From the sequence record PZ179880.1: 64,000 nt of DNA; one strand, 5' to 3'. Shown piece by piece: positions 14,677-25,070 of this stretch. Each line of letters begins with the position of its first letter. Position 1 is the stretch's first letter. This stretch comes from a phage. The notes beneath the pieces were generated by a model that saw only the letters and a program-made list of their open reading frames with translations, did not search any database and was not told the DNA's origin. The translations under genes were made by a program, and so were the position numbers.

Positions 14677-14891
14677 TAATAAATTTCCTTCCAGTAAGTT
14701 GTACCGCCTTCAGTGATTTCACGGAATACACCGTAAATTGGTTGTTTATCACCGACTTTCTCATACACATAAACCGAAGTTAAGTGAGTAAACTTGCTAG
14801 TATGTTCCTTTTGAACTACTACCAAATCTGGATCGAATAATACATCTTCAAATTCGTTATTAGTGCAGTTCTGAACAATTTTACGTTTCAT
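14676..14891 (-). CDS. Hypothetical protein (71 aa); position and size fit T4 cef, not sequence-verified
   Basis: Minus-strand ORF with GAGGAAA SD, downstream of promoter at 15010-15038. Confidence 0.5.
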
Positions 14892-15009
14892 TACAATTTC
14901 CTCATTAATTGAACATTGGAGTGATGCGTTTCAGAAGAGTAGTAGCACCTTTGGCAAATTTTCCATTTTATTCTCCAAGTTGTTTTCTGTATCAGTAGTT
15001 GATATTGAT

Positions 15010-15038
15010 ATAGTACCATAATCAACTACTGATGTATA
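15010..15038 (-). promoter_or_regulatory. Putative T4-type early promoter (weak -35 TATACA, -10 TACTAT, TGn, UP element)
   Basis: Shares the gatattgatatagtacca and ttttatgaaaaaatttt blocks with other early promoters. Confidence 0.45.
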
Positions 15039-21881: not shown

Positions 21882-22352
21882 CTAGCGATAAAAACCAAAA
21901 TAACGATTAGTTTCAATAATCTTTCTTTCTTCTTCGGACATTCTCCAGCGTAGTCCAACATCAAAATGAGCCCAGACCATCTTAACAAATGCATTTATAT
22001 CTTTAATATCTTCAATAATGAATGTTTTACTTTTAGAAGGTTGACTCGCTAATTTAACTTTATCGTCTTCAAATAGGTCAAAAAGACCATATTCATGAGC
22101 TCTTTTATAGCCTTTGATAGTTAAAGCCTCAGAAGAAGAAAATGGTGAATCAGTATGCTGCAAAATATCTTCAGTATGCTTTATAATTAGAATAACATCT
22201 TCTGGATATTTTCTTTCTTTTATATCTTTAATTAAAATATCCGGATTTTCTGCTAAAGGAATAATTAATGAACACTTTTTATCAAGTGTATTTACTGATT
22301 TACCTTCTTTAGACATAAATTCTATTGAATAATGTTTTGCTACTTCAATCAT
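21882..22352 (-). CDS. Hypothetical protein (156 aa)
   Basis: Minus-strand ORF. Confidence 0.5.
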
Positions 22353-22509: not shown

Positions 22510-22709
22510 GATTTATCCCCATAGATGTCTCTCATCAATTTAAGCGCTGAGCGTTCTAATTTCTTTTCTTTCTCAACGCTAATCATTGATTTCATCCATT
22601 CTTCTGATTCGTTCTGCATTTCTTTATTTGCTTGTTCAACCCAACCATCGTCAAGGTACATTGAGTTTGGTCTATTGAACCATTCAAGTATTTTCTTCAG
22701 AACTTTCAT
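22506..22709 (-). CDS. Hypothetical protein (67 aa)
   Basis: Minus-strand ORF. Confidence 0.4.
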
Positions 22710-23181
22710 TTGTTTTACCTAAAACAACAGTAGGAGCATCGTCAAATTCATGAATTTTTAGCAAATTTGGATGTAAACTATTCCATACAGAAGAAATAAA
22801 ATATGATAAAGCATCTTCACTCGCAATTATAAATTTGTTTCCTTTATCTATTTTCCAGTTATATAATGAATCGTACGAATAGAAAGATAAAGGTTTATCA
22901 TTATATTGTTCTGCGCTAACATTAATGTATTCGGATTTAGTAAATGCTTCAATTGCTCTAAATGGAATATTTGGTACAGTTTCAATAATTCCGATCTTTT
23001 TAAGTTTTATTTCAGCATCTTCTGGAACTGGCATTGAAACGAAATTTTCTACGAGATACATTGGGTCACAATAACCCTTATCAATCATTACTGCTACGGT
23101 AATTGGAACATCTTTAGCAAATGACATGCTATTACTGCTAATATACATTTCAAACAAAATCGCTTCCATAATTTTCCTCAA
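22684..23181 (-). CDS. Hypothetical protein (165 aa)
   Basis: Minus-strand ORF. Confidence 0.5.
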
Positions 23182-23561
23182 TCACAAGATGTAGATGAAC
23201 AACTAGAATCACAAGAACTTCCACATGAATCGCCCGTCCACACATGAACAGGAACATTAGTATCATATGAATCAGAACTAGACTGTGTATTCTGCGTATT
23301 AGATGATGTAGGTGTTGACCAACGCCAAGGATTTTTATAATATTCCTGGGCTTCTTCATAAGTCATAGTAACTGCTTCTACTGTTCCATCTCCCATATAA
23401 ACATATTCAACTACAGTTAAAGGAAGGTAGTCATTTGAAATAGGAACTACACCTTCTCCGGGAGTTGTAGAGAAAAAATCCGTAAAGAAACTTTTAAACC
23501 AATTAAAGATAAACATTACAAAAAGCCTCTTTGAAATTCGACTCTTTGAAATCCACCCCAA
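23178..23561 (-). CDS. Membrane-anchored protein with Cys/Ser-rich C-terminal tail (127 aa)
   Basis: N-terminal hydrophobic segment; C-terminus [18 protein letters not shown]. Confidence 0.5.
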
Positions 23562-23754: not shown

Positions 23755-23783
23755 ATTATACCATACTCATTTTGGAAAGTAAA
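23755..23783 (-). promoter_or_regulatory. T4-type early promoter (-35 TTTACT, -10 TATAAT, TGn)
   Basis: Minus-strand GTTTACT..N17..TGGTATAAT. Confidence 0.65.
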
Positions 23784-23793
23784 CCGGTAAAAT

Positions 23794-23819
23794 GAAAAAA
23801 GGACTCCCGAAGGAGTCCT
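23794..23819 (-). terminator. Rho-independent terminator after soc
   Basis: Stem aggactcc/ggagtcct, loop cgaa, then U-run on minus transcript. Confidence 0.7.
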
Positions 23820-23824
23820 TGAAT

Positions 23825-24070
23825 TTATTCACCAGTTACTTTCCACAAATCTTCGTTTGCAGTAATCCATTCAGTACGTTGATTTTCTTCATATACTGTA
23901 GAATATGCTGCTTTTTCTGAAGGGAATATCTGATAATGAGCGCCAGAAATTTTGTGAACGTCAGAATAAAGAGGGAAAGCTACAGAAATTTCCTTTCCTT
24001 CAATTTTCTTATTTCCATCTAATTTTTGCTCAAATGTTTTAATATTAACATAACCGCGAGTACTAGCCAT
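23825..24070 (-). CDS. soc: Small outer capsid protein Soc
   Basis: 81 aa MASTRGYVNIKTFEQKLDGNKKIEGKEISVAFPLY... matches T4 Soc (memory). Confidence 0.95.
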   Translation of the reverse strand: MASTRGYVNIKTFEQKLDGNKKIEGKEISVAFPLYSDVHKISGAHYQIFPSEKAAYSTVYEENQRTEWITANEDLWKVTGE

Positions 24071-24107: not shown

Positions 24108-24291
24108 ATAAATTCTTGTGGAACGTTAAAATACCCAATTTTAGTTAATATAACAACATCACCGTTAATAATTACCGGAGAATAATCGGCTGGAGCATTA
24201 AACTTCCAATGAGCTCTAATATTATATCCATCAGAACCAAATGCTCAACTAGCCGGTCTCCCGGCTTTTTGCCATGCATAAAAATCAAATT

Positions 24292-24492
24292 TCATTTTGA
24301 ATGCTCTATAATTAATTTTAAGGCTTCTTCATGCACCTTACCTAATTGTATATGTCCAGTTTTAATTGTGTAAGCTTTGTGGAGCTGATTAGATAGGAGC
24401 TCGTATGTGAGCTCCTTGTCATAATTTTTAAATAGCTGGTCAATACGTTTCTTGTGGGCTTTCTTAAGTTGACGTTTATTTAAACGAGCCAT
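24292..24492 (-). CDS. Hypothetical basic protein (66 aa)
   Basis: TAATG-coupled to gene 56 stop. Confidence 0.45.
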   Translation of the reverse strand: MARLNKRQLKKAHKKRIDQLFKNYDKELTYELLSNQLHKAYTIKTGHIQLGKVHEEALKLIIEHSK

Positions 24493-25007
24493 TAATAACC
24501 TCGGTCTTGACGAGCGAAGTTTTCAGCATTTTTCAGATAATAAAGTTTAAAGATTTCTTCAGCCGTAAGACCGAGACCTTGGAACATGTTCAGAACGAAA
24601 TGAAGAATATCAATCATTTCGAATTTAATTTCCAACTGGTCTTGTGGAGACAAATCAGTAATCAGAGTTTCACGTCGTTCACCATGTTGAGCTTTCCAAG
24701 GCTTCCATACAGCAGATGCATCTTTTTCACCATTGCTCATACCACCAAGAGAAGTCAATAGTTCGCGGAATTCATCATCAATATAATCTTTCTGATTACG
24801 CAGCCAATCAACAACTTCACCCGCAGTAGCCAAATCATCAGGATGACGGTTATATTCAGGTTTATCTTTAGCTAAACGAACCTGTAGAGATTTCTGCATA
24901 TCAAGCATAACCTGCAGCGGGTCTTTTTCATCACCGAGAATATCCCAGTATTCATTTTGAGCTTTATCAGCGCCTTCGATCAGTTGACTACATTCGTTAA
25001 AGTAAGC
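24492..25007 (-). CDS. 56: dCTP pyrophosphatase gp56 (MazG-like)
   Basis: 171 aa from MAYFNECSQLIEGADKAQNEYWD...; matches T4 gp56 (memory). Confidence 0.9.
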   Translation of the reverse strand, partial: AYFNECSQLIEGADKAQNEYWDILGDEKDPLQVMLDMQKSLQVRLAKDKPEYNRHPDDLATAGEVVDWLRNQKDYIDDEFRELLTSLGGMSNGEKDASAVWKPWKAQHGERRETLITDLSPQDQLEIKFEMIDILHFVLNMFQGLGLTAEEIFKLYYLKNAENFARQDRGY

Positions 25008-25070
25008 CATTATTTTTCCTTTCAATTCATTAATAAGTTAAATAATTATATCATTTGAGTATGTAAGCAA

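Follow-up and report, generated by a model that had tools for sequence, protein, structure and literature searches.

The Mrh.1 (DUF7206) protein of T4-like phages ends in a conserved acidic, cysteine-containing tail that may act through thiol chemistry

The stretch of phage DNA analysed here (sequence record PZ179880.1, 64,000 nucleotides, called the window throughout) is a Tequatrovirus (T4-like) genome, and the open reading frame (ORF) that an earlier note had singled out in it is the ortholog of T4 mrh.1, a member of the Pfam family DUF7206 (phrog_2031). The gene and its family are already known and catalogued, and are ordinary for a genome of this kind. What appears to be undescribed is that the protein ends, throughout the family, in an acidic peptide with two invariant Cys residues, and that this peptide also occurs on unrelated carrier proteins of a second phage family, the Grimontviridae. 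The tail is under protein-level purifying selection, and as a whole we favour the explanation (with a probability of roughly 0.4) that it acts by thiol chemistry, most probably by coordinating a metal. T4 is the best-studied of all phages, yet dozens of its early genes are without a function. With the present analysis an anonymous domain of unknown function (DUF) becomes a defined object: a non-globular protein of about 110 residues with a selected C-terminal peptide, two irreplaceable Cys and an acidic end.

Conservation of the C-terminal tail

Statistics for the tail were taken over 117 representatives of clusters, all of them full-length and drawn from many genera of T4-like phages. The C-terminus is C-[D/E/N] in 117/117 of them (CD in 113, CE in 2, CN in 2); exactly two Cys are present in the last 30 residues of 113, and 108 have no Cys elsewhere. 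The usual form of the tail is [G/S]-S-C-D-S...S-C-D-COOH, the first conserved Cys being within SSCDS or GSCDS in 102/117 and the second following at an offset of 5-11 residues, mostly 7 or 9, via Gly/Ser spacers. The last 20 residues consist, over the family, of 43% Ser, 17% Asp, 16% Gly, 10% Cys and 8% Tyr; the mean net charge of the tail is -3.4, and a Lys or Arg is found in the last 25 residues of just one representative. The two family Cys are never replaced, although a Cys-to-Ser change takes a single base and the tail is so rich in Ser; from this we infer that the function of the tail needs the chemistry of a thiol, and not the size or the hydrogen bonding of the side chain.

In the window protein, 85% of the last 20 residues are Ser, Gly, Asp or Cys. 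The earlier note had counted five Cys in this region, at regular spacing; there are four, at residues 98, 102, 106 and 111 (offsets 4, 4, 5), and the probability of finding at least four Cys in 18 residues at the Cys frequency of the window (1.36%) is about 9e-5. Regular spacing, in the form C-x3-C-x3-C, is indeed a property of the Tequatrovirus type, but only two Cys, at the variable offset given above, extend to the family. The perception of the tail as unusual was sound: no other ORF of at least 40 residues in the window ends in C[DE], and the tail is conserved to the most distant relatives.

The two extra Cys are present in all clusters and records of the Tequatrovirus type that were examined (P0001, with 515 members, P0002-P0004, Sf23 and SfPhi01), for which the pattern is C-x3-C-x3-C-x4-C, four Cys in 14 residues. 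On account of the SSCDS context and the offset of 9, we take the family-wide pair to be most likely C102 and the penultimate C111, with C98 and C106 as lineage-specific additions; MAFFT alignments disagree as to whether C102 or C106 is the family-wide residue. In other genera the matching region reads SSYSSYDSGS, with Tyr or Ser at the positions of the extra Cys.

A peptide of such extreme composition might be functionless and owe its persistence to chance, to mutational bias or to a nucleotide signal that overlaps it. The mrh.1 stop codon overlaps the Shine-Dalgarno (SD) sequence of mrh, two records are frameshifted (see below), and the gene is non-essential: T4 mrh.1 (14,685-15,026, coordinates from the T4 annotation) falls within region delta12 (map units 16,280-3,778), which was reported to be dispensable (PMC6070864). 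This possibility is nevertheless extremely unlikely, and is already largely refuted by the invariance of the tail, by codon turnover and by the sharing of the module. A comparison of ten loci shows that the codons for Ser (TCN/AGY), Cys (TGT/TGC) and Asp (GAT/GAC), as well as the stop codon (TAA/TGA), all switch, and that the DNA downstream of the tail is unrelated from locus to locus. As the peptide is conserved despite this synonymous turnover and despite different downstream genes across genera, the constraint must be on the peptide and not on an overlapping nucleotide signal. The positions of the Cys and the terminal C-[D/E/N] do not vary in any representative, the tail-coding region contains no DNA-level tandem repeat, and the module is common to an unrelated phage family.

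Among close relatives, where its absence or frameshifting would be most telling, the tail is retained: of 502 records, 476 can be aligned without a change of frame across residues 1-93, the rest of the protein being masked by the low-complexity filter of BLAST, and 1-nt indels are found in 2 of about 500 Tequatrovirus records. The latter are ERS-1 (L032, PP337211.1, an 'UNVERIFIED_ORG' record) and Bas43 TadeuszReichstein (L033:447-814, MZ501106.1), in which mrh.1 is split by a mid-gene single-base indel. In both, the tail-coding DNA downstream of the indel is otherwise intact; Bas43, for which the annotators called two ORFs, differs by a synonymous change from TGT to TGC and by one Val change upstream. 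The indels represent either the recent inactivation of a dispensable gene or sequencing error. An antisense-frame product appears solely as a frameshift artefact in these two records, and the ORFs that overlap mrh.1 (23150..23359(-) in another frame, and several on the plus strand) are without support.

Identity, extent and reading frame of the family

The window protein matches Pfam DUF7206 (PF23836) with E=5e-28 (98.2 bits vs a cut-off of 25.6) over profile positions 1-107 of 107, and phrog_2031 with E=1.3e-33. Its T4 counterpart is T4p027 (NP_049642.1, labelled 'Mrh.1 hypothetical protein'), the same gene at the same position: the window protein has one Thr fewer and one T/A change (~98% identical protein), the tails are identical, and there is no difference of substance between the two. 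The syntenic annotation of mrh.1, between mrh.2 and mrh, is found both in T4 (NC_000866) and in RB32. A 1.6-kb region around the gene is 99.3% identical to Escherichia phage a51 and is covered to at least 80% by 354 phage records, whose hosts are nearly all Escherichia, Shigella, Yersinia and related enterobacteria. Since DUF7206 is a family without an assigned function, membership in it explains nothing about mechanism.

An exhaustive phmmer search over 1.84 billion representatives yielded about nine real relatives, together with a spurious eukaryotic repeat protein (P0015), while the profile search gave 157 clusters, all of them DUF7206, in which every source name and every sampled contig is a T4-like phage. 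By tblastn the family is distributed over Tequatro-, Mosig-, Dhaka-, Winkler- and Kanagawavirus and over T4-likes of Klebsiella, Enterobacter, Erwinia and Kosakonia; in distant genera the gene order soc - mrh.2 (Y01J) - DUF7206 - small ORFs - Mrh-like - Mod is conserved. In the Winklervirus genomes (Erwinia phage Vettismorki, L008, and Kosakonia phage Kc304, L011) the DUF7206 gene lies directly after soc, with no mrh.2 homolog, so that Mrh.1 does not depend strictly on the coupled mrh.2.

The 127-residue ORF 23178..23561(-) of the earlier note exists, as does the tail quoted there, but its TTG start at 23561, inside mrh.2, is wrong. The true start is the ATG at 23516-23514, which overlaps the stop codon of mrh.2 (TAATG), an arrangement that implies translational coupling. 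The position of this ATG and of its SD sequence (Table 1), the length of the deposited coding sequences (CDSs) for mrh.1 (all 339-342 nt), the point at which both the Pfam and the PHROG profile begin (residue 18 in the 127-residue version) and the N-termini of the homologs, which all begin M-[IF]-x-W-[LF]-K, together set the length of Mrh.1 at 112 residues (12.5 kDa, pI ~4). One ENA entry (P0009, 150 aa, from a 647-bp contig) has a eukaryote-like N-terminus fused to the same untranslated upstream frame that inflated the 127-residue ORF; this chimera is very likely an assembly artefact.

Architecture of the protein

The middle of the DUF7206 proteins is hypervariable; what is conserved is an N-terminal helix, a hairpin motif and the C-terminal tail. 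AlphaFold2 (AF2) was run twice, with multiple sequence alignments of about 70 sequences, on the window protein and on a Dhakavirus-type member. With a mean predicted local distance difference test (pLDDT) score of 59 and predicted template modelling (pTM) scores of 0.28 and 0.19, the models predict Mrh.1 to be essentially non-globular and its tail disordered. Only the hairpin and the short helix that follows it are confidently modelled; the linker is of low confidence in both models, and the pLDDT of the tail is <50 in the window model and ~50 in the second. The hairpin carries the conserved motif EY-x-Y-x-GDG-x-x-EEV, with invariant residues Y40, G42, G44, E47 and V49, and K8 and F15 are invariant in the N-terminal part. 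A Foldseek search of the PDB with the AF2 model gave only matches with E>1, an outcome without meaning for a model that is mostly disordered, and a PDB sequence profile search gave nothing below E=0.15.

Other genera have, in the linker region, a helix of basic character and a short run of hydrophobic residues (D-T-T-P-I-V-V-A-A-A-V-S-S-W). A mosaic protein of 164 residues from Escherichia phage 235Ecol030PP (P0003), compared with JS10 (L012:1501-1818) and with window positions 23241-23333, joins a T4-type N-terminus and a four-Cys tail to a Dhakavirus-type middle of about 50 residues (EKAGNVGAGALPLNSKKLKEHL...IDTAPIITATAVSSW); in its light the short T4-type linker looks like a deletion derivative, or else the gene recombines in its disordered middle.

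The N-terminus is rich in Phe, Trp and Ile, an amphipathic helix is predicted in it, and in many members the tail is preceded by a short hydrophobic stretch (TPIVVAAAVSSW). These features would agree with a reading that builds on the earlier note, of Mrh.1 as an integral membrane protein with an N-terminal hydrophobic anchor and a Cys tail that lies outside the cytoplasm and is lipid-modified or forms disulfides; we consider this reading very unlikely. The best 19-residue Kyte-Doolittle window scores 0.84 in the protein of 112 residues and 1.19 in the version of 127, whose 15 extra residues raise the apparent hydrophobicity and are untranslated; the value of 1.6 taken as the criterion for a transmembrane (TM) segment is attained in 0/117 family members (maximum 1.09). 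Only about 10 N-terminal residues (MIxWLKNLFK) precede a Pro-Gly-Glu-Gly turn in the family, too few for a TM helix or the h-region of a signal peptide. Read from the sequence, the N-terminus (MIxWLKNLFK-x-x-PGEG) has neither a signal peptide h-region nor a lipobox, no Cys being present before residue 98. As for the proposed lipid modification of the tail, we know of no bacterial precedent at a C-terminal ...SCD, and this part of the reading is left without support.

The claim of a membrane anchor thus reduces to an amphipathic helix of 11-15 residues, which could mediate peripheral membrane association at most. Its Eisenberg hydrophobic moment (muH), 0.4-0.8, exceeds that of 92-99% of shuffled sequences in most lineages. 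For the N-terminal 11 residues these values are in the same range as those calculated for the C-terminal membrane-targeting sequences (MTS) of MinD and FtsA. There is no sequence homology to the MinD and FtsA MTS or to lambda CIII, and the Mrh.1 helix differs from them in being N-terminal, its membrane binding being putative.

The tail as a module on unrelated proteins

A profile made from the tail only, which carries little information, retrieved a single weak match (P0127, E=0.23) that proved to be real. P0127 has a different N-terminus (CSNCG...H...C) and ends in ...SYDSPSCDSGSSFSGSCD before its stop codon. The contig that encodes it shares ~87% identity with two Salmonella phages, 7-11 and SE131 (Grimontviridae, Moazamivirus); the phages of these carriers are podophages with an extracytoplasmic function (ECF) sigma factor and are unrelated to T4. 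The proteins 7-11 gp041 (YP_004782416.1, phrog_29294), SE131 gp056 and pSal-SNUABM-01_045 terminate in ...SDSYSSCDSSSSFSGSCD, and PKM.Lu.22.1 WHS68295.1 in ...IATSTTITTSGDSYDSGSSSCDSGSSSSCD. When the Pfam DUF7206 hidden Markov model (HMM) was applied to the C-terminal halves of the carriers, PKM.Lu.22.1 matched with E=2e-5 (25.5 bits) and the others with E=1e-3. An hhalign comparison of the family profile with the PKM.Lu.22.1 protein gave a probability of 96.8% (E=2e-10) over 46 columns; beyond the low-complexity tip, the aligned region takes in the basic stretch and the hydrophobic one that lie upstream of it. The module can be delimited as the C-terminal ~48 residues, with a basic stretch, a short hydrophobic stretch, GDS/YDSG and SCDS(G/S)n-SCD-COOH.

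This C-terminal module is autonomous and is reused in a second phage family. Mrh.1 and the Grimontviridae carriers are alike in these ~48 residues, in their small size and in belonging to phages of Enterobacterales, whereas their N-termini, their gene neighbours and their virus families are unrelated. The carriers begin with C-x2-C-x(3-4)-H-x8-C, for which there are sub-threshold matches to Zn_ribbon_3 and rubredoxin-like families. They are always the second ORF after DNA ligase, in an early block of DNA-metabolism genes, and the genes upstream of them are unrelated to mrh.2, on which ground a two-gene module with Mrh.2 was rejected. The architecture is rare (6 + 2 phage records), and in the Crifsvirus relatives GAP52 and ECO319P1 the same slot is occupied by an unrelated acidic protein of 70 residues. 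Three unannotated PHROG families, phrog_17348, 22612 and 22391, have C-termini that are matched by the C-terminal part of 7-11 gp041 and of P0127 (best E=6.5e-7), and they may be further carrier architectures.

Searches with DNA patterns for the tail revealed no host-encoded or additional carrier, an absence that is weak evidence as the patterns fix some of the codons: a degenerate pattern gave six chance matches outside ORFs, and the specific pattern YDSGSCDS...CD-stop found only one Winklervirus contig (IMG/VR) and one chance match (bacterial genomes).

We tentatively suggest, as a possibility on which we would not insist, that the C-terminal ~25-48 residues (...GDS-YDSGS-SCDS-(S/G)n-SCD-COOH) may be an undescribed portable, thiol-dependent effector peptide, grafted by unrelated Enterobacterales phages onto different small carriers and directed at a conserved host target. 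Such a peptide could be a metal-directed warhead whose thiol and carboxylates are turned against a host metalloprotein; it could also act as a redox mimic or a glutathione mimic, or be the substrate of a modification. If the tail were such a thiol-based effector, it would represent a new type of small tool for host takeover and would point to a conserved target in enterobacteria.

Possible chemistry of the tail

The conserved elements of Mrh.1 can be assembled into the following scheme. Localisation or docking, to a partner or the inner membrane face for instance, would be the task of the N-terminal elements, and the C-terminal peptide would be the working end, acting via thiol chemistry. Most probably, its two thiolates would act with the neighbouring carboxylates as chelators of a soft metal ion, Zn or Fe for instance. 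Mrh.1 might hold this metal, as an ion or a cluster, for itself, in a site that two chains may share, or the metal might belong to a host metalloprotein, into which the flexible tail would insert a thiol-carboxylate ligand; in the Tequatrovirus type, the two added Cys would provide a four-thiolate site within one chain. Judged from sequence features, metal coordination, which the earlier note had also raised, is favoured over the other chemistries and ranks above redox exchange, because a flexible Gly/Ser loop with carboxylate-flanked thiolates is well suited to chelation and because two further Cys were acquired in the T4 lineage and have been retained there, giving a set of four thiolates. 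A penultimate Cys beside a terminal Asp brings together a thiol and carboxylates, a classical zinc-binding arrangement, and a flexible chelate loop would accommodate the variable offset between the two Cys more readily than a rigid epitope would.

A number of points weigh against this assignment. With two Cys per chain there is no classical tetrahedral site, unless Asp ligands, dimerisation or the metal of a partner complete it. Pfam, PDB profile, NCBIfam and Foldseek searches connect the tail with no known metal-binding motif or family. Metal binding alone does not account for how strongly Ser, Tyr and Asp are conserved next to the Cys (YDSGS), and redox exchange or a covalent modification of the Cys would fit these data too. 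Predicted disorder, as such, says nothing about ligand binding. The membrane association of the N-terminal helix is inferred solely from its amphipathicity, and in two lineages its muH is not significant with respect to shuffled sequences. Finally, no literature was found on 'mrh.1' or 'DUF7206'.

No C-x2-C occurs in the T4-like family, which therefore lacks the pattern of a zinc ribbon or knuckle, and an NCBIfam scan produced only sub-threshold, composition-driven matches. The C-terminal tail of SlyD and the metallothioneins likewise offer a disordered acidic terminus with Cys; the Mrh.1 tail differs from these in having no C-x-C, CC, C-x2-C or His, in keeping two Cys family-wide and in giving no database match.

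In an alternative explanation the two Cys form a dithiol/disulfide couple that exchanges with thioredoxin, glutaredoxin or glutathione-dependent enzymes, as a substrate, a decoy or a trap. The tail might then work like the shuttle tail of class Ia ribonucleotide reductase (RNR), or as a mimic of glutathione (a thiol between two carboxylates, ...Cys-Asp-COOH). We regard this as unlikely. The tails read from the genomes for Escherichia coli NrdA (...SIQDDGCESGACKI) and T4 NrdA (...TPKADDCAACKL) bear a generic likeness to that of Mrh.1, being acidic and flexible with a Cys pair near the carboxyl end, and C-[DE]-S-G is common to the Mrh.1 family (C-D-S-G) and E. coli NrdA (C-E-S-G). T4 has a glutaredoxin and an RNR of its own, which we count in favour of a redox role, and invariant Cys on a loop of variable length are compatible with an intramolecular disulfide. 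However, RNR tails end in C-K-[IL] with an offset of 3-5 and belong to a large enzyme (...GCESGACKI in E. coli, ...DDCAACKL in T4), whereas the Mrh.1 family ends in C-[DE] with an offset of 5-11, as ...SCDS...SCD on a non-globular protein of about 100 residues. Mimicry of the RNR tail was dismissed after comparison with the real NrdA sequences, as the family lacks C-x(2-4)-C followed by K-[I/L]-COOH; the resemblance is generic and stands as an analogy only. The two extra Cys of the T4 type would be of no obvious use to a simple dithiol couple, and none of the loci examined has a gene for a thioredoxin-fold partner nearby.

Unlikely, too, is that the tail is a modified or recognised peptide: a short linear motif (SLiM) with covalently modified Cys, Ser or Tyr, the core of a ribosomally synthesised and post-translationally modified peptide (RiPP) attached to a leader and bearing heterocycles, lanthionine or thioether links, in each case through processing by an enzyme of the host or the phage, or a segment that docks into the groove of a partner. 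The layout of Mrh.1 is superficially that of RiPP precursors (microcin B17 McbA, lanthipeptides, thiopeptides), in that a variable linker joins a conserved N-terminal part to a C-terminus rich in Cys, Ser and Gly, and residues 94-108 match FxLD lanthipeptide precursors (TIGR04363, E=0.034), although at 14.2 bits the match is far below the cut-off of 30. As a precursor, Mrh.1 would be a chain of about 100 residues with a long disordered linker. In about 15 loci of the two phage families no gene for a cyclodehydratase, a lanthipeptide synthetase or a radical-SAM enzyme is called beside it; the neighbours are Soc, Mrh-like proteins and Mod ADP-ribosyltransferases, or DNA ligase and an exonuclease, and differ between the two families. 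The portability of the tail between unrelated N-termini is what is seen with SLiMs, while the variable Cys-Cys spacing speaks against docking through a rigid epitope.

Organisation of the locus

The mrh.1 gene is part of a minus-strand series in the order gene 56 dCTPase, two small ORFs, soc, mrh.2, mrh.1, mrh, srh, modA.4, modA.3; the coordinates of the features discussed here are collected in Table 1.

Table 1. Positions of the features of the mrh.1 locus in the window, of the segments of Mrh.1, and of the Grimontviridae carriers of the tail module
Feature	Position	Strand	Basis or remark
gene 56 dCTPase	24492-25025	(-)	
soc	23825-24070	(-)	
Intrinsic-terminator-like hairpin (9-bp stem, 5 GC pairs) and T-run	23799..23820	(-)	Directly after soc
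Sigma70-type promoter-like site TTTACT-17-TATAAT, extended TG	23755..23783	(-)	Upstream of mrh.2; 10/12 matches, consensus match only
mrh.2 ortholog, 70 aa	23516..23728	(-)	Pfam Phage_T4_Y01J in related loci; translationally coupled upstream gene
Shine-Dalgarno AGAGG	23526..23530	(-)	9 nt upstream of ATG 23516; read from coding strand
mrh.1 ortholog CDS, 112 aa and TGA stop	23178..23516	(-)	Pfam and PHROG match, synteny
Mrh.1 residues 1-15, aromatic amphipathic N-terminal helix	23472..23516	(-)	AF2 helix 3-15, pLDDT ~60; family core M-I-x-W-L-K-N-L-F
Mrh.1 residues 34-61, beta-hairpin and short helix	23334..23417	(-)	AF2 strands 34-40, 46-52, helix 53-61, pLDDT ~80
Mrh.1 residues 62-92, variable Ser/Thr/Asn/Gln-rich disordered linker	23241..23333	(-)	pLDDT <50; alignments
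Mrh.1 residues 93-112, conserved acidic Ser/Cys tail	23181..23240	(-)	Family alignment, codon comparison
mrh ortholog, T4_MRH family	22684..23169	(-)	SD GAGGAAA overlaps mrh.1 stop codon
Carrier, 7-11 gp041	L016:1201-1440		
Carrier	L017:1201-1440		
Carrier	L018:1201-1443		
Carrier, PKM.Lu.22.1	L027:5449-5703		
Carrier, P0127	L014:5001-5216		

The gap between soc and mrh.2 measures 96 nt and holds the strong terminator-like hairpin followed by the strong sigma70-like promoter with its extended -10 element, an arrangement that would insulate soc from the early mrh.2-mrh.1-mrh unit. The promoter-like site, the start-stop overlap of mrh.2 and mrh.1 and the position of the mrh.1 stop codon inside the SD sequence of mrh together indicate that these three genes form an early-type operon; the mrh.2/mrh.1 start-stop overlaps recur in JS10, CIP9 and a Klebsiella phage. 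A search with the PADLOC-DB HMMs for anti-phage defence and counter-defence, made with Mrh.1, Mrh.2 and three distant family members, gave no match at E<=1. A connection with σ32 through the neighbours mrh and srh, or with FtsH or RNase E as targets, would be speculation that rests on nothing computed here.

Two further observations concern the surroundings of the gene. Between soc and gene 56 (24172-24492 (-)) the window contains two small ORFs, one of 38 residues and hydrophobic, the other of 66, as do phages 107 and a51, while T4 has the homing endonuclease segF in this slot and RB32 has nothing there; the interval is a variable slot, prone to homing endonucleases. On the other side, two T4_MRH paralogs about 300 bp apart, mrh (22684-23169 (-)) and modA.3 (21882-22352 (-)), flank srh and modA.4, and related genera have one or two T4_MRH copies in differing arrangements.

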